Positions 1,068 through 47,642 of a stretch of 64,000 nt of DNA are shown in pieces. Position numbers and translations under genes: made by a program. The notes beneath the pieces were generated by a model. That model was not told where the DNA came from. It made no database searches and saw only the letters and a list, made by a program, of their open reading frames with translations. The stretch's first letter is position 1. Each line of letters begins with the position of its first letter. Location: IMG/VR virus record IMGVR_UViG_2916515220_000003. One strand, written 5' to 3'. This stretch comes from a virus (taxonomy: Duplodnaviria; Caudoviricetes).

Positions 1068-1303
1068 GCGACGGTGACCTCCTGATTGATAAGCGCCATG
1101 CGCTGGTATTTCGGGATGCCGATGAAGGCCCAGGAAGCGGAGACGCCGCAAACGGTGAGCATCACGGCGATAACGGCTCGGAACCGGCGCTTGAAAGACT
1201 TGGTCGACGTGTCGATGCGCCGGATGTGGTTGCCGAGTTCGATGTAAATCTCGGTCGGGTCATCCGCTTCTTGTGTGTTGGTGGTGGAGAAAGCGTCCAT
1301 CAC
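1055..1303 (-). CDS. hypothetical membrane protein
   Basis: ORF in early-left operon with one hydrophobic segment. Confidence 0.6.
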   Translation of the reverse strand: MMDAFSTTNTQEADDPTEIYIELGNHIRRIDTSTKSFKRRFRAVIAVMLTVCGVSASWAFIGIPKYQRMALINQEVTVAWKR

Positions 1304-1740
1304 GATCTCCCGTCAGCTTTGGCTTCGAGCCGATCGATTAGGTCACGTGCAGACTTGTCGCAGTCGCCCTGAGAATAGTATGCCTCCATCATGTCGATGA
1401 GGCTGTTCAACTCGGTGACGATCTCATCAATCTCGGCTGTCGTCAGAACGACTTTGCGATGTCTGCGGGCTTCGGCTTCCCGGCGTTCACTCTCGCGGCG
1501 CGCTTTCTCAGCTTCCGCAATCGCCTTCTGATCGGACTTCAACTTACTTCTCAGAGCGTCAGCCGAAACGTCATGGACATTTTTCATGTGGCTCTTGAGA
1601 CCGTCGAGCGTCTTCAAGACCTTTTCGCAATGGTCGCATTTGAAGTTGCCGCGCTGCCGCCAGTCGATATAGACCATCGGCTCCCGGCCTTCTCTATCAA
1701 GGTCGATCATGTCATCGCCCCATGCTGCATGGTCTGCCAT
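1300..1740 (-). CDS. C2H2 zinc-finger-containing hypothetical protein
   Basis: FKCDHCEKVLKTLDGLKSHMKNVH C2H2 pattern. Confidence 0.7.
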   Translation of the reverse strand: MADHAAWGDDMIDLDREGREPMVYIDWRQRGNFKCDHCEKVLKTLDGLKSHMKNVHDVSADALRSKLKSDQKAIAEAEKARRESERREAEARRHRKVVLTTAEIDEIVTELNSLIDMMEAYYSQGDCDKSARDLIDRLEAKADGRS

Positions 1741-2145: not shown

Positions 2146-2850
2146 TTACTTGGTGGGGGTGGAGAGAGCGGGTTCCGTCATCTCGTTCAGCGCCAGCCAT
2201 TCGAGCGACCATTCCAGCGCCATTTTCGATGCGAAGCCGCCGGCACTGTCGTCTTCCGGCTTGTCGCCCTTGCGGATCATGGCGAACCACTGTTCGGCAT
2301 GGTTCGAGGCGCTGTGATCGAGAACGTCGTAGTTGACCGATTTCGCATTCGCGATGGTGCCGACGAGGCAGGCGCATTCGCCTTCATAGGTCGATCCGTC
2401 AACGCGACCGTCACGCAGCGCGGCGATCAGCGCAGGTACTTCATGGCGGTTCTGCGTAAGCGTCATCCAAAGATCGGCTTTGAAACTTCGCAGGTTGGCG
2501 TAGCTCAGGTCGGCGTAGCTCAGGTTGGCGGAGCGCAGGTTGGCGTAGCTCAGGTCGGCGTAGCTCAGGTTGGCGGAGCGCAGGTCGGCGTAGCGCAGGT
2601 TGGCGTAGCTCAGGTCGGCGTAGCTCAGGTTGGCGGAGCGCAGGTCGGCGTAGCGCAGGTTGGCGTAGCTCAGGTCGGCGTAGCTCAGGTTGGCGGAGCG
2701 CAGGTCGGCGTAGCGCAGGTCGGCCTTTGCTTCCAAAGCCGCCAGAACGGCAAGCCGGAGCAGTATGGAATTCGGCGTGTTTTCGTCCGCCTCGACATCT
2801 GCCGAGTACAGAACCGTGTCATCCCAACGATTTTTGATTTCAACTTTCAT
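2146..2850 (-). CDS. pentapeptide-repeat protein
   Basis: About 15 A(D/N)L(R/S)(Y/S) pentapeptides plus C-terminal GRVDGSTYEGECACLVGT domain. Confidence 0.9.
   Translation of the reverse strand: MKVEIKNRWDDTVLYSADVEADENTPNSILLRLAVLAALEAKADLRYADLRSANLSYADLSYANLRYADLRSANLSYADLSYANLRYADLRSANLSYADLSYANLRSANLSYADLSYANLRSFKADLWMTLTQNRHEVPALIAALRDGRVDGSTYEGECACLVGTIANAKSVNYDVLDHSASNHAEQWFAMIRKGDKPEDDSAGGFASKMALEWSLEWLALNEMTEPALSTPTK
2491..2723. repeat. 15-bp tandem repeat with 60-bp higher-order period (encodes pentapeptides)
   Basis: 2581-2640 and 2641-2700 are identical; unit CAGGT(T/C)GGCG(T/G)AGC(T/G). Confidence 0.95.
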
Positions 2851-2889
2851 CATTTTCCTATCCCTTGTCTGAAGCCCTATGCGGGGCGG

Positions 2890-3653: not shown

Positions 3654-4066
3654 GCACCTGCCGTTTCGGTTAGGCTGTCGAGATCGACGCCGATACGCTT
3701 GAGCAACGCCTTTTTCTGGTCCTCGTTCAGGAGCTTGCCGCTCAGAAGCATGTTGACCGTCTTCTCCCCGATCTGGAGGTTAGGGGCCAATGCGCGATTG
3801 ACGTTGTAATCTTCCTGCACCTTGACGGTGAGGCCGAAGCCATGTGTCGGAATGGTCGCGGTGAGTTCCGGCCAGTTGAACTGGATGGACGATCTCCTGT
3901 ATTCTTGGCAGTCAATCGCCAGCGCTCCGAGGCCTTTCGGGCTATTCAGAAACTCCTTCTGCGCCTCTTCGCGAACCTTGATAAGTTCTGCTTCGGCAGC
4001 CTTCAGGCGCGAAACCAGCGCCTTACCGAGGTCATCGTAGGAGACTGCGACTTTCACGTAAGTCAT
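3650..4066 (-). CDS. hypothetical phage protein
   Basis: Coupled ORF with RBS. Confidence 0.65.
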   Translation of the reverse strand: MTYVKVAVSYDDLGKALVSRLKAAEAELIKVREEAQKEFLNSPKGLGALAIDCQEYRRSSIQFNWPELTATIPTHGFGLTVKVQEDYNVNRALAPNLQIGEKTVNMLLSGKLLNEDQKKALLKRIGVDLDSLTETAGA

Positions 4067-4101
4067 TTGCTCATCCTCAGTGGTTGAGATCGTGTTGGAG
4101 A

Positions 4102-4737
4102 TCAGGCGGAGATTTTTTCGAGGGCTTCGCGGAAGCGGGCTTTTTCAGCCTCAAGGAACGCTTTGTGCTTGGCTTCGACGCCGCGACGAACCTCAGCAAT
4201 CAGTTCGTTCGTCACCTTCTCGATCTCGCGCTTGAAGGTCGTTTCCATGCACCTCTCAACGAGGTACTGGATGCGGCTCTTTTCGTTGTAAGAGGATCGA
4301 TCGTTGACCTTGCCGTCGCTGCCGACCATTTGCGTCAGGTACTGGCGACCGGTCAGGCCGAGAAATTCCCGCATCGTGACCGGGTCAGCGTCAGCTTTGC
4401 CGTAGGTGTACTTCGGGATAAGCGGCTGATTGATGATTTCGGTCGTGACGGCTTCGAGCGTGGCATCTGCCTTTGCGGTCACCAGCGAAATTGTCTTGGC
4501 CTCGATTTCTTTTGCAAGACGATCATTGCCGAACTTGCCGACCAGCTGCTGAGCGGCAGCCTGAACGATCAGCTCTTCCATGTCGCGCAGCGTCCACGAG
4601 GTCATGGCAACATGAAACTCGATACCGTTGCCTTCAGCCTCTTTGCGGGCCTCCATGCTGCTGGACACGCCATCGTCGTCATGTTCTGCGCCGAGCAGTT
4701 CGTTGGCGTTGCCAGTATCCATGATCACGTTCGTCAT
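4102..4737 (-). CDS. hypothetical phage protein (first gene of early-left operon)
   Basis: Start MTNVIMD after GAGGATGAG; downstream of operator pair. Confidence 0.7.
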   Translation of the reverse strand: MTNVIMDTGNANELLGAEHDDDGVSSSMEARKEAEGNGIEFHVAMTSWTLRDMEELIVQAAAQQLVGKFGNDRLAKEIEAKTISLVTAKADATLEAVTTEIINQPLIPKYTYGKADADPVTMREFLGLTGRQYLTQMVGSDGKVNDRSSYNEKSRIQYLVERCMETTFKREIEKVTNELIAEVRRGVEAKHKAFLEAEKARFREALEKISA

Positions 4738-4817: not shown

Positions 4818-4880
4818 TGTTGCATAACGTGCAACTTATTGCAATGGGGTCGGCGAAAGAAAGTTGAATAACATGCAACT
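4818..4880. promoter_or_regulatory. two repressor operators (WGTTGCA-N5-TGCAACT) at the early-left promoter
   Basis: TGTTGCA-taacg-TGCAACT (4818-4836) and AGTTGAA-taaca-TGCAACT (4862-4880); same motif between cI and cro. Confidence 0.8.
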
Positions 4881-4905
4881 TATTTGTTGCGCCATCGTGC
4901 ATATG

Positions 4906-4946
4906 AGAGCAAAAAGAAACCCCGGCGGGATGATCCGACCGGGGCT
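4906..4946 (-). terminator. rho-independent terminator (minus strand)
   Basis: CCCCGG-CGG/CCG-a-CCGGGG stem preceded by AAAAAGAAA (U-tract on minus strand). Confidence 0.7.
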
Positions 4947-4962
4947 GATGGCATAAGTTGCT

Positions 4963-4992
4963 TCGACGGTTGTTTTACCAGAATGGTATAAT
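4963..4992 (+). promoter_or_regulatory. putative sigma70 promoter firing into the non-coding cassette
   Basis: TCGACG-18-TATAAT with extended -10 TG (tggTATAAT). Confidence 0.5.
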
Positions 4993-5154
4993 TTCGCAAC
5001 CGAAACGATTGCTGTCAGGCGCTGAAAAGCACAAAATCTTGCGTCTGCTCGGAGGTTCCCGGCAAGATGATGTGTTTAGAGGTGCAAAGGCAGCGGTTTT
5101 TTCAGGGCATTGTCCCGCGCCGCCGATCAATCCGGCAAATCAATCCCGACGCGG

Positions 5155-5430
5155 TTGCTGCTTCCCAGGCTGAAGCAGACTGTCTCAGGGGATTAGACGA
5201 CCCTTCGACTGGCTTGGACGTGGCTTGAGAGATTGAAGCAGGGTTATGCGGACCATGAGGGCGCTTCGGCGTTGATGATGGGGAAGGATTGGCCCACCTG
5301 TGAAACGGGCACCTGTGGATACTGAGACTTGAAAGCGTCCCGGACTGGCTGCTGATTGAGAGCGCCCTCCGTAACTCAGGACCGTGGTGTTTCCCTCATG
5401 GGGGCATACGTCTTGATAGGGGAAACTATG
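5155..5430 (+). ncRNA. candidate structured non-coding RNA (unknown family)
   Basis: Long nested helices with G-U pairs (5241-5270 with 5351-5377), possible pseudoknot 5182-5188/5322-5328, 3' stem 5389-5396/5418-5426; no credible ORF. Confidence 0.55.
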
Positions 5431-5457
5431 CTCTGAATCCTGAATCAGACTGAAACC

Positions 5458-5489
5458 AGAGCAAAAAGAAACCCGCCGGAGCGGGTCTC
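5458..5489 (-). terminator. rho-independent terminator after HicBA-like pair
   Basis: ACCCGC-cgga-GCGGGT hairpin preceded by AAAAAGAA. Confidence 0.75.
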
Positions 5490-5679
5490 AATCAACGTCC
5501 ATTGTGAATTTCAAAGCTTGCAAAGCGGCAGCTCGTTTTTCCTCTGTTAGAGGCTCAGGGTCAGGGACTGTCCAAAATTCTCCGTCCCTATCCTGATGTA
5601 CCGTTGAACCTTCGTAAGCCCGACGAACCGGTGTTAGGCCAAGCGACTTGATTTCTGCCCGATACTCGTCCGCCGTCAA
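5488..5679 (-). CDS. HicA-like small protein (putative toxin)
   Basis: 63 aa, helix-GL..VRR..GS..-TVP pattern reminiscent of HicA; TTG start right after HicB-like gene. Confidence 0.45.
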   Translation of the reverse strand: MTADEYRAEIKSLGLTPVRRAYEGSTVHQDRDGEFWTVPDPEPLTEEKRAAALQALKFTMDVD

Positions 5680-5967
5680 TTATGCGGCTTCCTGCAATTC
5701 AAAGCGGCGCGTCTGTGTTTCAAAGCCGATCGATTCAAGCGATACTTCTTCGGCTGGCCGAACGATGACGTTCTTGTGGCCTTTCGCTTCCATGAGAGCA
5801 ACGATTGCCTCAGGAATACGATCATTCAATTCTTCCATGGTATCGCCATGGACAAAAAGCCCCCGCACTTGCTTGCTTGTCGCAATCATCATGCCGGTTT
5901 CTTTGTGCTGCTTAACGTCGATTTCTATGAACGTATGGTTGGTGTGCACGGTCATATCACTCTCCAC
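5680..5967 (-). CDS. HicB-like antitoxin (DUF1902-like)
   Basis: IATSKQVRGLFVHGDTMEELNDRIPEAIVALME HicB partial RNase H fold pattern. Confidence 0.7.
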   Translation of the reverse strand: MESDMTVHTNHTFIEIDVKQHKETGMMIATSKQVRGLFVHGDTMEELNDRIPEAIVALMEAKGHKNVIVRPAEEVSLESIGFETQTRRFELQEAA

Positions 5968-6090: not shown

Positions 6091-6285
6091 TCACTGCTTC
6101 TTCACCTCGTCCCGTTTCATCCGCTCAAGCTCGTCTGCGCCCAGAGCTGCCTCAAGCACAGCATCCACCTCCGGCAAGAAGCTCTCCCACATCGGCCGCT
6201 GTTCAAAGGTGATGTTCTCCGGCACTTCATTGAAGCGGGCTAGGGCGCGGGCGGCGCGTTCTCGGGGAGGTTGGGGTAGTTTCAT
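6091..6285 (-). CDS. small protein co-transcribed with repressor
   Basis: ATGA overlap with cI stop. Confidence 0.65.
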   Translation of the reverse strand: MKLPQPPRERAARALARFNEVPENITFEQRPMWESFLPEVDAVLEAALGADELERMKRDEVKKQ

Positions 6286-6629
6286 CCGTCAGTGCCGGTT
6301 TTAATGTCCTCGAACATCAACTTGAGCATCTGGACGGCTTTCTCTTTCTGCTCTTCGGTTTTGTCGCGGAAAAACTGAGCTAACCAATCGTCCTCTGGAT
6401 CTCGGAAAAGAGAGCCGACTTCTTCCAGCTGGAAAAGAATGCAGAGCTTATCAAGATACTCGGGCTTCGGTAGGACACCTTTGTTGAACCACTTCGAAAC
6501 AAGGCCTTTGTCGACGTCGAGTTCTTCAACGATATCCTTCTGCTTAAGCCCGCGCTTCTCCGCCCACTCTGGTATGAAGTGGATGCGGCGCGGCGTCTTA
6601 TTGGCGTGAATCGGGGTGATGTTGCTCAT
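6282..6629 (-). CDS. CI-like XRE-family repressor (no S24 peptidase domain)
   Basis: EWAEKRGLKQKDIVEELDVDKGLVSKWFNKGVLP HTH; divergent from cro. Confidence 0.9.
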   Translation of the reverse strand: MSNITPIHANKTPRRIHFIPEWAEKRGLKQKDIVEELDVDKGLVSKWFNKGVLPKPEYLDKLCILFQLEEVGSLFRDPEDDWLAQFFRDKTEEQKEKAVQMLKLMFEDIKTGTDG

Positions 6630-6716
6630 GTTGCAACTTTACGATTTTCAAAAAGTTTGATCGTTATTGCGGCATGCAACTTTTTCTGTTGCGTCAAGTT
6701 GCAACTTATGCAACTA
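6630..6716. promoter_or_regulatory. cI/cro divergent promoter-operator region
   Basis: Perfect AGTTGCA-actta-TGCAACT at 6697-6715 plus TGCAACT half sites; no room for a cI RBS, suggesting leaderless cI. Confidence 0.8.
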
Positions 6717-6953
6717 ATGTCAGCCATGGAACAGACATCGGCAATCACCAAATTTCGCGAAGGCAACGACCGGATGACCCTTGAGGCATTCGGCAAGCTA
6801 TTCACTCCGGCTGTCGACAAGTCGACGGTCCTTCGCTGGGAGCGCGGCCAGATTACGCCGCGACGGGCAATAGAGATTGAAGCAGTTTCCGGAATTTCGC
6901 GTCATGAATTGCTGCCTGACGTGTTTGGCAGAGCGCCGGAGAACGCAGCATGA
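6717..6953 (+). CDS. Cro/YdaS-like HTH protein
   Basis: MTLEAFGKLF..VDKSTVLRWERG..IEAVSGISRHELLPDVF. Confidence 0.85.
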   Translation: MSAMEQTSAITKFREGNDRMTLEAFGKLFTPAVDKSTVLRWERGQITPRRAIEIEAVSGISRHELLPDVFGRAPENAA

Positions 6954-9229: not shown

Positions 9230-9574
9230 ATGAAGGCGGCGACATACAAAAAGGGCGTGAAGCCCAAGCGGGGTATGAGCCTCGCACGTCGCGCCGCAAA
9301 GCGTGACGCCAGCGAACCGGAGATCGTCACGGCGCTAGAGCAGTGCGGGTTCTCGGTGTTTCGCCTGAATGAGCCTTGCGATCTGCTCGTCGGCTTCCGT
9401 GGCAAAAACTATCTGGTCGAATGCAAGACGAATGGCACAGCCTACGGCAAAGACCTCAACAGCAATCAGCAGGCTTTCAACGACTTTTGGCGCGGCGGCA
9501 AGATGGTTCGCATCGGCAGTGCTTTGGAAGCGCAAGATTGGGCGATATCGATCGCCAGTAAGGCGACGGCATGA
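9230..9574 (+). CDS. VRR-NUC-like PD-(D/E)XK nuclease
   Basis: KRDASEPEIV..PCDLLVG..LVECKT..LNSNQQAF. Confidence 0.8.
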   Translation: MKAATYKKGVKPKRGMSLARRAAKRDASEPEIVTALEQCGFSVFRLNEPCDLLVGFRGKNYLVECKTNGTAYGKDLNSNQQAFNDFWRGGKMVRIGSALEAQDWAISIASKATA

Positions 9575-17431: not shown

Positions 17432-17509
17432 CGTCGGTGTAGAGCAGCCCGGTAGCTCGCTTGGCTCATAACCAAGAGGCCGCAGGTTCAAATCCTGCCA
17501 CCGCAACCA
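17432..17509 (+). tRNA. tRNA-Met(CAT), initiator-like, phage-encoded
   Basis: Cloverleaf with D-arm GAGCAGCCCGGTAGCTC, anticodon CTTGG-CTCATAA-CCAAG, GGTTCAAATCC, C1:A72 mismatch, CCA end; one extra T in acceptor stem. Confidence 0.85.
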
Positions 17510-47568: not shown

Positions 47569-47642
47569 GGCCTCGTGGCGGAGTGGTGACGCAGAGGACT
47601 GCAAATCCTTGTACCCCGGTTCAATTCCGGGCGAGGCCTCCA
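47569..47642 (+). tRNA. tRNA-Cys(GCA), host, probable integration site
   Basis: GGCCTCG acceptor, GAGGA-CTGCAAA-TCCTT, GGTTCAATTCC, TCCA end. Confidence 0.97.

Follow-up and report, generated by a model that had tools for sequence, protein, structure and literature searches.

In the window (the whole stretch of 64,000 nucleotides of phage DNA analysed here), positions 4920–5437 of the plus strand encode a structured RNA of ~518 nt that belongs to a conserved non-coding family. The family is real and apparently new, made up of previously undescribed, large pseudoknotted non-coding RNAs of alphaproteobacterial phages. The central reading, a folded plus-strand RNA in the prophage immunity region, had been proposed by an earlier sequence-only reading of the window, and is strongly supported by covariation among homologues and by the strand bias of G–U pairs. 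Both ends of the RNA are predicted, from the limit of conservation and a putative promoter. The length of ~280 nt given by the earlier reading is too short, as the conserved unit measures ~490–560 nt (~4920–5437 in the window).

Distribution and novelty of the family

A homologue is found in Brucella phage BiPBO1. In addition, homologues occur in 13 of 399 genomes of the same family, in ~59 IMG/VR contigs and in ~66 metagenome contigs, supplying the alphaproteobacterial relatives that the earlier reading had proposed to look for. The family total is about 100 phages of Alphaproteobacteria, and the conserved unit spans ~490–640 nt across members. A core model matches 59 of 80 viral loci end to end or up to the end of the locus, and the conserved loop with its flanking stem is kept in 66 of 80 metagenome loci. 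The genome of the window itself harbors a second copy; the cores of the two copies are 93% identical, whereas their antisense-target regions are unrelated. Sampling at the order level added a single weak match among 150 other genomes, and a search of plasmids gave no match. An AT-rich locus (L131) and several non-alphaproteobacterial loci, whose match is limited to the loop, were set aside as chance.

A scan of the whole window with the Rfam 15 covariance models returns only two tRNAs, both elsewhere in the window, in line with the earlier reading, which could not match the RNA to a known family. Between 4700 and 5700, with E up to 10, nothing reaches the gathering threshold; the best match is NsiR1 (E=0.23, not significant), which covers 4911–4966 of the minus strand. 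The homologous RNAs of L102, BiPBO1 and L126 have no Rfam 15 match either, and we found no description of the family in the literature. Large conserved pseudoknotted bacterial RNAs are rare, and nearly every characterised class has yielded new biochemistry. With ~100 or more members and covariation behind 17 helices, including two pseudoknots, the family constitutes a well-supported new class.

Covariation and architecture of the RNA

Covariation was assessed for 93 proposed pairs in 22 full-length members. In this set, 91.6% of cells are paired, compared with 77.8% in shuffles, and the search for covariation suggested by the sequence-only reading finds 57 pairs changed on both sides (36.2±2.6 in shuffles). 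The covariation score is 0.420 against 0.173 in shuffles, none of 500 shuffles scoring as high, and controls with slid partners score 0.058–0.093. Strict helix detection gives 8 helices (40 bp) when G–U is allowed and 4 helices (21 bp) when A–C is allowed, and many pairs switch between G–C and G–U among members. The G–U pairs are specific to the plus strand, which is therefore the RNA strand, unlike in DNA palindromes; the plus-strand G–U mismatches reported earlier thus hold across the family. A minus-strand RNA ending at hairpin T, the natural reading given a 3' terminator, was rejected because the covarying helices use plus-strand G–U. The window alone folds no better than chance, with MFE z-scores of −1.58 for the plus strand (7 of 100 shuffles fold as well) and −0.40 for the minus strand, and the evidence for structure is covariation, not folding energy.

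The interval lacks a credible ORF, as the earlier reading had noted: none exceeds 71 aa in the window, and none is conserved in any frame across homologous loci. Gap runs sorted by length modulo 3 number 325, 126 and 60, without a period of 3, so the codon-type conservation that the sequence-only reading had named as refuting it is absent and a protein-coding reading was rejected. In BiPBO1, a 44-aa ORF (gp62) is annotated over part of the RNA. ORF clusters across homologues are spread over several frames and both strands, a sign of nucleotide conservation rather than a gene, and ORFs such as gp62 that overlap the RNA are probably spurious. The gp62 annotation, these clusters and the poor folding of the window alone could also be accommodated by a degenerate protein gene, or by helix-like palindromes in a DNA element such as a recombination site, a set of operators or a hairpin at an origin. 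This is extremely improbable: gap lengths and frames show no coding pattern, long-range and crossing helices covary, and strand-specific G–U is not expected of DNA palindromes.

The RNA is composed of the following elements.

4920–5437, plus strand: structured RNA, both ends predicted
4910–4944, strand not assigned: hairpin T with A/U tract; CCCCGG 4920–4925/CCGGGG 4939–4944 and CGG 4926–4928/CCG 4935–4937
4945–5018, plus strand: long-range helix Hx, 4945–4952 with 5011–5018, supported by covariation
Within Hx, plus strand: hairpins CGGUUG 4968–4973/CAACCG 4998–5003 and UACCA-GAA-UGGUA 4977–4989
5019–5085, plus strand: hairpin H1; outer stem 5019–5022/5082–5085, lower stem 5028–5031/5073–5076, upper stem 5036–5042/5062–5068
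5043–5061, plus strand: H1 loop, 19 nt, near-invariant, GUCUGCUCGGAGGUUCCCG, containing GGAGGU
5159–5178, plus strand: hairpin with conserved loop CCAGGCU (helix 10)
5182–5188 with 5322–5328, plus strand: pseudoknot PK1, GUCUCAG with CUGAGAC, 7-bp helix with 5 covarying pairs
5187–5225, plus strand: helices 5187–5191/5201–5205 and 5211–5214/5222–5225 (helices 12 and 13)
5216–5221 with 5335–5340, plus strand: pseudoknot PK2 (helix 14), GGACGU in the loop of 5211–5214/5222–5225 with GCGUCC
5257–5369, plus strand: 3' domain; closing helix of the window lineage GAGGGCGCU 5257–5265/AGCGCCCUC 5361–5369
Within the 3' domain, plus strand: hairpin GCCC 5292–5295/GGGC 5307–5310 and the 3' strands of PK1 and PK2
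5408–5437, plus strand: 3' block ACGUCUUGAUAG (5408–5419), a short variable stretch and a conserved tail; conservation ends at ~5437

At the 5' end, hairpin T (helix 2) has 5 of 11 pairs changed on both sides and is 97.9% paired. It shows no strand preference, being more stable on the minus strand in 21, on the plus strand in 19 and equally stable in 10 of 50 cases, and it would serve both as the 5' hairpin of the sense RNA and as an intrinsic terminator of antisense or leftward transcription. Hx (helix 3; columns 72–80/135–143) contains several pair types, with 5 of 6 pairs changed on both sides and 76.5% paired; its register in the window was read directly from the sequence. In 79 sequences, all 7 pairs of the upper stem of H1 are changed on both sides and 94.6% are paired, and the covariation score of H1 is 0.535 against 0.192 in shuffles (0 of 500 as high). 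Within the prophage, no trans target complementary to the H1 loop was found, only a 78% direct, non-complementary repeat at 9382–9399.

The central part of the RNA contains the two pseudoknots. The hairpin that the sequence-only reading had placed at 5158–5178 (helix 10) is changed on both sides in 6 of 6 pairs, and the crossing pairing it had reported at 5182–5188/5322–5328 is PK1 (helix 11), whose compensatory changes affect both sides in 4 of 5 pairs, with 99.1% paired. Helices 12 and 13 are 100% paired, as is PK2, in which 3 of 6 pairs are changed on both sides. PK2 replaces a local hairpin, GGAU/AUCC (A2 columns 506–509/526–529), which shows only U–G, whereas PK2 covaries. In the 3' domain, 8 of 10 pairs of helix 15 and 2 of 4 pairs of helix 16 are changed on both sides. 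The nested helices 5241–5248/5370–5377, 5257–5265/5361–5369 and 5266–5270/5351–5355 and the stem 5389–5426, all seen earlier, are present in the window but lineage-specific: the stretch that holds them is common only to the window, L090 and L100 (3 of 22 sequences), and the first of them gains a G·A mismatch in L090 and L100. Other members close the 3' domain with a different long-range helix (A2 columns 435–445/588–597). The 3' block comprises 8 invariant columns, CGTCTTGA, and many unpaired nucleotides of the RNA are invariant across the alignment. A closing helix between AAGA (A-tract) and UCUU (3' block), proposed by RNAalifold, was dropped as invariant and incompatible with the predicted start.

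Immunity-region setting, predicted promoters and predicted antisense RNA

The RNA lies within the following set of regulatory elements.

4819–4837 and 4863–4881: operator-like 19-bp motif AAGTTGCAYGTTATKCAAC, two copies, read as OL
6696–6714: third copy of the same motif, beside the cI-like gene, read as OR
4887–4915, plus strand: predicted sense promoter; −35 TTGCGC 4887–4892, 17-nt spacer, −10-like CAAAAA 4910–4915
4911–4999, minus strand: predicted cis-antisense unit; −35 TTGCGA 4999→4994, 16-nt spacer, extended −10 TGnTAAAAC 4977→4972
5458–5489, minus strand: terminator T2, serving the hicA/hicB-like pair; the second copy of a 17-bp repeat is made up of its A-tract plus left arm

The 19-bp motif has 3 matches in the window against 0.03 expected, with direct and inverted repeat families. 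The layout is OL, RNA, moron slot and cI, and the RNA would form its own transcription unit within the immunity region, with its promoter back-to-back with OL and directed towards the cI-like gene. In 22 of 78 loci the largest ORF to the right encodes an S24 repressor, and in each of these the gene and the RNA converge; no other protein gene within ±1.5 kb proved to be conserved beside the RNA. The earlier suggestion that the RNA was acquired as a moron does not hold, for about 100 phages keep it, in synteny, as part of their immunity region. The hicA/hicB-like pair to its right (5488–5967, minus strand), a protein–protein (type II) module, is absent from most homologous loci and looks like the actual moron. 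Downstream of the RNA nothing is conserved, so an origin or unwinding element is not evident there, and morons of either orientation directly follow the RNA. Frequent tRNA neighbours are a mark of the GOLLD, ROOL and OLE RNAs, along with homo-oligomeric assembly; in the window, the tRNA genes closest to the RNA lie at 17433 and 47569.

The 17-bp direct repeat AGAGCAAAAAGAAACCC described earlier is indeed present at 4906–4922 and 5458–5474, identical at 17 of 17 positions. Each copy leads into a G+C-rich hairpin which, read along the plus strand, comes after the A-tract; both hairpins therefore terminate minus-strand transcription, 5489→5468 (9 pairs, tail TTTTTGCT) and 4931→4919; the terminator hairpins noted by the sequence-only reading exist, but serve the strand opposite to the RNA. 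T2 is outside the RNA family. A unit insulated by two minus-strand terminators, which holds for the window, L100 and BiPBO1, was rejected as a general feature, since only 5 of 22 loci have a minus-strand terminator in the 160 nt that follow the RNA on its 3' side.

The TGnTATAAT promoter of the earlier reading is present on the plus strand (TCGACG-18-TATAAT, 4963–4992, 10 of 12 matches, TG present) but is not conserved in homologue alignments. It is thus specific to the window and was rejected as the family promoter, the conserved sense promoter lying to the left of hairpin T. From that promoter, transcription would start at ~4921–4924, at the base of the hairpin. In 55 of 59 loci a TTG precedes the AAGAAAAG motif by 24–28 nt, the 14 nt upstream are 68% A+T compared with 54% overall, and in several loci the sense −35 box is flanked by inverted repeats.

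Facing this promoter, the predicted antisense unit would yield an RNA of ~53 nt, starting at ~4965 and ending at ~4911 in the U tract of T. Its promoter pattern (TTGNNN-N16–18-TANNNN, with the end of the −10 box 55–85 nt, mostly 58–61 nt, before the end of the U tract) occurs in 45 of 60 loci having T, compared with 5.7 of 60 in shuffles. The antisense RNA would have its complement in the ~50 nt with which the sense RNA begins, a stretch that takes in the 5' strand of Hx, its predicted target. L102 and ~19 further divergent members lack hairpin T, hence the antisense unit defined by it. From sequence we infer which strand is used, where the RNA begins and ends, when it is expressed and that an antisense RNA is made at all.

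This arrangement brings to mind a regulator of the lysis–lysogeny switch, acting by convergent transcription into the cI operon or on early transcripts, in the manner of the P22 sar, lambda oop, P1 c4 and P4 CI RNAs. The position of the RNA between OL and cI, its invariable convergence with the S24 gene (22 loci), the operators beside or flanking the sense promoter and the face-to-face promoters, which resemble known phage switches, agree with such a role. It is nonetheless unlikely, because transcriptional interference does not need a conserved tertiary fold of 500 nt; morons, and in some loci terminators, separate the RNA from cI; the Rfam searches give no match to c4-type or other immunity-RNA families; and the RNA is present in a T4-like phage in a region where no repressor was found.

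Possible roles and comparison with known systems

That T4-like phage (L102), AT-rich with 28% GC, carries a very divergent copy. The loop and the 3' block are retained in it, the conserved motifs follow in the usual order, and both pseudoknot positions have complementary strands, with UCCUUU/GAAGGA at the place matching PK1. Its promoter, a clean TTGACT-18-TATCAT, is on the same strand as the RNA, which is flanked by genes for a UvsW-like helicase and RNase HI in a replication/recombination cluster. An RNase HI gene is adjacent to and co-oriented with the RNA in three lineages (L095 and L220; L102; L027), in only 4 loci of ~240 examined.

Our preferred explanation, put forward tentatively and by analogy, is that the RNA is a replication-primer RNA under antisense control, as in ColE1. 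When the repressor comes off the operators, the long RNA would be made as an early-lytic replication RNA, comparable to ColE1 RNA II or to the RNA-based origins found in prophages of mycobacteriophages. Thanks to its fold, the RNA would prime phage DNA synthesis, or open an R-loop for it, with processing by RNase H. The antisense RNA would act like RNA I, pairing with the 5' domain and blocking the productive fold, and the invariant 19-nt loop may contact a conserved host factor. The RNase HI neighbours, the gene setting of L102, the lack of a clear initiator or primase among the genes of the window prophage and the divergent antisense-target regions were counted in favour of a replication link, as was the precedent of RNA-based origins in temperate phages (PMC7157519). 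Against a primer role, the two conserved pseudoknots and the invariant loop with its Shine–Dalgarno-like GGAGGU are left unexplained, T4-like phages have their own primase-helicase, and the sense −10 box is poor (CAAAAA/TAAAAG). The small number of loci with an RNase HI neighbour, the lack of conservation downstream of the RNA, the absence of similarity to ColE1 RNA I or RNA II and the members that lack hairpin T also count against it.

The loop is also central to another reading, nearly as likely, a trans-acting RNA or ribonucleoprotein that would serve in lytic growth as a decoy, sponge or scaffold for a conserved host target. This target could be the 30S subunit (GGAGGU loop/anti-Shine–Dalgarno), a ribonuclease or a defence system; the antisense RNA would then do no more than tune the level. 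The 19-nt loop stays the same all the way from GC-rich temperate phages to the T4-like phage, which suggests a partner conserved across hosts; moreover, compact pseudoknotted folds are typical of partner-binding RNAs, no downstream gene is conserved, and the L102 promoter resembles an early promoter. Weighing against it, the partner is only postulated, with no conserved protein gene nearby, the recurring RNase HI neighbour is left unexplained, and complementarity of the loop to what we take to be the 16S 3' end covers only 6 nt. A more specific proposal, a ribozyme or RNA machine whose invariant loop engages a universal host target such as the 16S rRNA 3' end, kept from temperate Hyphomicrobiales siphoviruses to a T4-like myovirus and gated by repressor and antisense RNA in temperate phages, is improbable.

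Even less likely is a large ribozyme, self-processing or acting on another substrate. The two pseudoknots and many invariant unpaired nucleotides would suit catalysis, and HNH and GIY-YIG endonuclease genes, often found beside mobile catalytic RNAs, adjoin the RNA in L089 and L015. The RNA is, however, not inserted in a gene and thus not an intron, no cleavage-site signature was recognised, and no Rfam 15 ribozyme family matches, including hammerhead, twister, pistol, hatchet and HDV-like ribozymes, in the window, L102, BiPBO1 and L126.

If the preferred replication reading is true, ColE1-like priming and countertranscript control would extend to lytic replication in temperate and T4-like alphaproteobacterial phages, and would account for prophage replication without an obvious initiator. 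Should it prove wrong, the invariant loop would nevertheless indicate that phages manipulate a conserved host target. Either way, the fixed place in the immunity region, the predicted operator control and the putative antisense partner provide a defined, testable setting.

Several known classes can be set apart from this RNA. Type I toxin–antitoxin systems would call for a small conserved toxin ORF opposite the RNA, and type III systems for tandem-repeat antitoxin RNA ahead of a toxin gene; no ORF is conserved in any frame across loci, and the region has no tandem repeats. HK022 put-like antitermination elements act in the sense orientation just downstream of early promoters, whereas in the window the operons on either side run antisense to this RNA, whose G–U pairs mark the plus strand. 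The sar RNA of P22, oop of lambda, c4 of P1 and the CI RNA of P4 are phage cis-antisense or immunity RNAs, and P53as is an RNA of the P1 lytic replicon. Like sar, oop, c4 and P53as, the predicted 53-nt countertranscript starts inside its target and ends at an intrinsic terminator, and the predicted sense promoter appears operator-controlled, as P53 is in P1. In contrast to these RNAs, it would act on a large non-coding RNA instead of an mRNA.

In ColE1/pMB1, the RNA II primer is an untranslated structured transcript of ~0.5 kb linked to RNase H, and its countertranscript RNA I has three stem-loops. The phage RNA is likewise ~0.5 kb, untranslated and structured, with RNase HI neighbours as the link to RNase H, and its predicted short antisense RNA is complementary to the 5' end and ends in a hairpin terminator at the sense start. 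It differs in the antisense RNA (~53 nt with one hairpin), the immunity-region location, the putative repressor-controlled promoter, the two pseudoknots and the invariant 19-nt loop. The window has no Rfam 15 match to ColE1 RNA I or any plasmid copy-control family, and we found no sequence or structural similarity to RNA II, for which, to our knowledge, Rfam holds no model.

In mycobacteriophages with non-RepA parABS systems, a transcribed non-coding region is described as both required for replication and enough to support it (Wetzel et al. 2020, PMC7157519). By that description, the likeness lies in a non-coding transcribed region of temperate phages, and the difference in that those are actinobacteriophages with extrachromosomal prophages, where the region serves prophage maintenance rather than lytic growth (PMC7157519). 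GOLLD and ROOL are described as large, highly structured RNAs often found in prophages or phages (PMC5737381, PMC12286853), as is true of the present RNA. No GOLLD, ROOL or OLE model of Rfam 15 matches, and, compared with GOLLD and ROOL as portrayed in these sources, the present RNA is distinguished by its alphaproteobacterial hosts, a location not beside tRNA genes, its fixed position in the immunity region and a predicted antisense partner.

Extent, strand and structure of the RNA

The window contains a conserved, pseudoknotted RNA gene, which is real and, within Rfam 15, open-access papers and bioRxiv, of a kind not yet described. Its conserved span extends from hairpin T through ...ACGUCUUGAUAG-N5-AGUGUGUCU and measures 491-563 nt in all but one of the 22 A2 members, replacing the ~280-nt unit proposed by the sequence-only reading. 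The main elements in the window are:

4906-4922 and 5458-5474, exact 17-bp direct repeat
4910-4944, hairpin T, predicted 5' hairpin of the sense RNA and minus-strand terminator
4920-5437 (+), the RNA
4945-4952 with 5011-5018, long-range helix Hx
5019-5085, hairpin H1, with a 19-nt loop at 5043-5061
5182-88 with 5322-28 (+), crossing helix PK1, paired already in the sequence-only reading
5216-21 (GGACGU) with 5335-40 (GCGUCC) (+), second crossing helix PK2
5458-5489 (-), terminator T2

A2 is the full-length alignment of 22 sequences, drawn from 30 loci with the 3' signature that gave 23 distinct sequences; L102, a T4-like phage member, was left out because it is too divergent for MAFFT alignment. 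The element is non-coding: no reading frame stays open across the members of A2, the lengths of internal gap runs leave remainders of 1, 2 and 0 modulo 3 in 325, 126 and 60 cases, and ORFs within the element reach at most 71 aa, as expected from the earlier remark that no ORF is credible.

With G-U pairs allowed, strict criteria yield 8 helices (40 bp, 21 covarying), whereas the same criteria with A-C allowed, equivalent to G-U on the minus strand, yield only 4 (21 bp, 11 covarying). G-U outnumbers A-C by 341 to 189 over 79 sequences, and G-C/G-U or U-A/U-G exchanges occur at many pairs of A2. These results assign the RNA to the plus strand, in line with the G-U mismatches first noticed there, and make it antisense to the genes on both flanks.

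Curated structure (93 pairs, 17 helices) counted on A2
Cells paired: 91.6%; shuffles 77.8 ± 0.5%
Pairs changed on both sides: 57; shuffles 36.2 ± 2.6
Covariation score (22 sequences): 0.420; shuffles 0.173, as high in 0/500
Covariation score, partners slid 1-3 columns: 0.058-0.093

In PK1, compensatory changes occur at four of the five pairs counted, and 99.1% of cells are paired, with the variants GUCUCAG/CUGAGAC, GUCUUAG/CUAAGAC, GUUCCAG/CUGGAGC, GUCGGGA/UCCCGAC and GUCUCGA/UUGAGAC. All cells of PK2 are paired (variants GGAUGC/GCAUCC, GAACAU/GUGUUC and GAACGU/GCGUUC). The hairpin proposed at 5158-78 covaries in 6/6 pairs, and the upper stem of H1 is compensatory in 7/7 pairs over 79 sequences, with 94.6% of cells paired. 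The nucleotides at window 5187-5188 (A2 columns 312-313) could pair either with the PK1 partner, 5322-23, or with a local helix partner, 5204-05. The three positions covary jointly, and the junction may thus form a base triple or switch between pairings. The window sequence alone is not unusually stable (z-score -1.58 for the plus strand, -0.40 for the minus strand).

The 5' half is common to all members, while at least two other 3'-domain types exist. The helices proposed earlier at 5241-48/5370-77, 5257-65/5361-69, 5266-70/5351-55 and 5389-5426 lie in a stretch that the window has in common with L090 and L100 only. The 3' domain of the other 19 members is closed by long-range helix 15 (8/10 pairs compensatory), which helix 5257-65/5361-69 appears to replace in the window.

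Homologues and distribution

The Rfam 15 scan is empty at gathering thresholds (permissive best E=0.23), so that the element still matches no known family, and neither the window nor Brucella phage BiPBO1, L126 or L102 matches any Rfam family. The H1 loop, in four spellings, is absent from searchable papers, and the search of open-access papers and bioRxiv (including PMC5737381) gave no description of the RNA among structured RNAs of alphaproteobacterial or rhizobial prophages. The literature covered being open access and bioRxiv, an earlier description in a subscription journal is possible.

BLAST finds matches in 13/399 other genomes of the same family. An order-wide sample of 150 genomes gave a single weak match, and this sporadic distribution is the pattern expected for prophage cargo; the plasmid search gave no match. 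BiPBO1 is 74% identical to window 4997-5237, between gp61 and gp63, and a term search of the publication on this phage (PMC4729917) finds no RNA mentioned at the site. The annotated 44-aa hypothetical gp62 (BiPBO1 3996-4130) overlaps hairpin T and the predicted antisense RNA, and is probably not a gene.

The hairpin loop GTCTGCTCGGAGGYTCCCG is near-invariant among homologues. Its exact sequence is present at 49 genome loci, at 48 viral loci and in 111 metagenome stretches, and a degenerate pattern matched 86 viral stretches. The core model R1 (170 positions, 79 distinct sequences) matches 61 of 80 viral loci taken from these 86, and 59 of the 61 align end to end or up to the locus end. Matches confined to the loop, in Actinobacteria and further distant taxa, appear fortuitous. 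Full-length, high-scoring cores (135 and 149 bits) in records titled Gemmatimonadota and Chitinophagaceae MAGs (L021, L057) have Hyphomicrobiales-like sequence, and mis-binning of these contigs is possible.

A second core copy in the same genome (G000:C1:283963-284128, L002/L120), ~64 kb upstream, is 93% identical over window 5008-5171 and scores 154 bits against 158 for the window. Its 5' antisense-target region, operators and 3' domain are all unrelated to those of the window, and the copy is presumably part of another prophage of different immunity type.

The viral contig of L102 (147 kb, ~28% GC) carries T4-like genes for regA, clamp loader, clamp, gp46/47, gp55, UvsY, UvsW-like helicase and gp32. 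In a 670-nt intergenic region of L102, the exact loop sits on a stem rich in A-U. The region also holds the hairpin whose loop is ACCAGUCUCC, the 3' block ACGUCUUGAUAAG...GGAUCUAAA and, on the strand of the RNA, a clean TTGACT-18-TATCAT promoter; the strands at the two pseudoknot positions are complementary (UCCUUU/GAAGGA and CUCUAU/AUAGAG). R1 matches only the hairpin, and the motif order suggests homology beyond it. The RNA is flanked by the helicase gene and by an RNase HI gene starting ~30 nt past the RNA's 3' end. Co-oriented RNase HI genes likewise adjoin the RNA in L027, in L095 and in L220, which is related to L095 (56% identity between their proteins). The RNase H proteins of L095 and L102 are 39% identical; no further RNase HI neighbour was found among the other viral loci.

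Immunity region and predicted transcription signals

From left to right, the region comprises exoVIII and other leftward early genes, the OL operators (4819-4881), hairpin T, the RNA (+), T2, a hicAB-like pair, a 64-aa ORF, the cI-like gene, OR, and the cro-like gene with rightward genes. In lambda the arrangement is cI-rexAB-t_imm-OL, which this layout resembles. The operator-like motif AAGTTGCAYGTTATKCAAC occurs three times in the window (0.03 expected), twice directly left of T and once beside the HTH_3 gene 6282-6629. In the switch (6282-6953), this 115-aa cI-like gene (-) diverges from the cro-like gene (+; phrog_35, weak YdaS match), with operator repeats at 6621-6714. The early-left operon encodes a small protein whose motif resembles a C2H2-type zinc finger (1300-1740 (-)), as well as a pentapeptide-repeat protein (2146-2853 (-); PF00805, 2.3e-27). 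Plus-strand tRNA genes lie at 17433-17505, inside the rightward prophage region just ahead of the packaging genes, and at 47569-47639.

The largest ORF in the ~1.5 kb to the right of the RNA contains Peptidase_S24 at 22 of 78 loci, always convergent with the RNA; at others it encodes ImmA-like or HTH-only proteins, the remainder being varied morons in either orientation. This survey therefore places the RNA as fixed in the region with a moron slot beside it, overturning the proposal that the RNA itself was an acquired moron. The 63-aa and 95-aa (DUF1902, HicB-like) ORFs at 5488-5967 (-), likely a hicAB-type pair, look like the moron instead, because they are absent at most homologous loci. The pair has its own terminator, T2, in which the hairpin T 17-bp sequence is used again. 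Each repeat copy runs into a G+C-rich hairpin, as the claim that each starts a terminator implies; both terminators are intrinsic and belong to the minus strand, since the A-tract comes before the hairpin on the plus strand. Directly after the RNA, on its strand, L015 and L089 carry GIY-YIG (weak match) and HNH endonuclease ORFs, which may be free-standing homing endonucleases exploiting a conserved RNA gene.

The plus-strand promoter noticed earlier is present as TCGACG-18-TGGTATAAT. For the predicted sense promoter, 55 of 59 loci have a TTG at a distance of 24-28 nt upstream from the AAGAAAAG motif, with A+T-rich sequence before it. Several loci have inverted repeats on either side of the -35 box, and in the window 5 bp separate this box from the end of an upstream operator, which suggests repressor control. 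Inside the 5' domain, a predicted antisense promoter (TTGNNN-N16-18-TANNNN, often with extended TGn) occurs in 45 of 60 T-bearing loci against 5.7 in shuffles; in most of the 45, its -10 ends 58-61 nt before the U-tract end. The predicted product would be a ~53-nt RNA complementary to the sense 5' hairpin and the 5' strand of Hx. Hairpin T is equally stable on both strands. The two same-genome copies, with cores 93% identical and 5' regions unrelated, diverge as expected if the 5' region sets specificity.

Candidate mechanisms

Any mechanism would have to account for the large conserved fold, the invariant loop with GGAGGU, the predicted repressor-controlled expression, the predicted dedicated countertranscript against the 5' domain, the T4-like replication-cluster location, the recurring RNase HI neighbour, and a prophage in which neither a clear initiator nor a primase was found. 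The favoured reading, held at well below even odds, is that the RNA serves as a replication primer or forms an R-loop and is controlled by the countertranscript. Against it, no conserved sequence lies downstream of the RNA, RNase HI adjoins it in only 4 loci, and the tertiary fold and invariant loop are left unaccounted for. An RNA acting in trans on a conserved host factor has about the same likelihood; a lysis-lysogeny regulator, or a ribozyme as first considered, is less likely than either. The primer reading would liken the RNA to the ColE1 system, in which the primer RNA II is controlled by the countertranscript RNA I. It would likewise resemble the RNA-based origins of mycobacteriophage prophages (PMC7157519).
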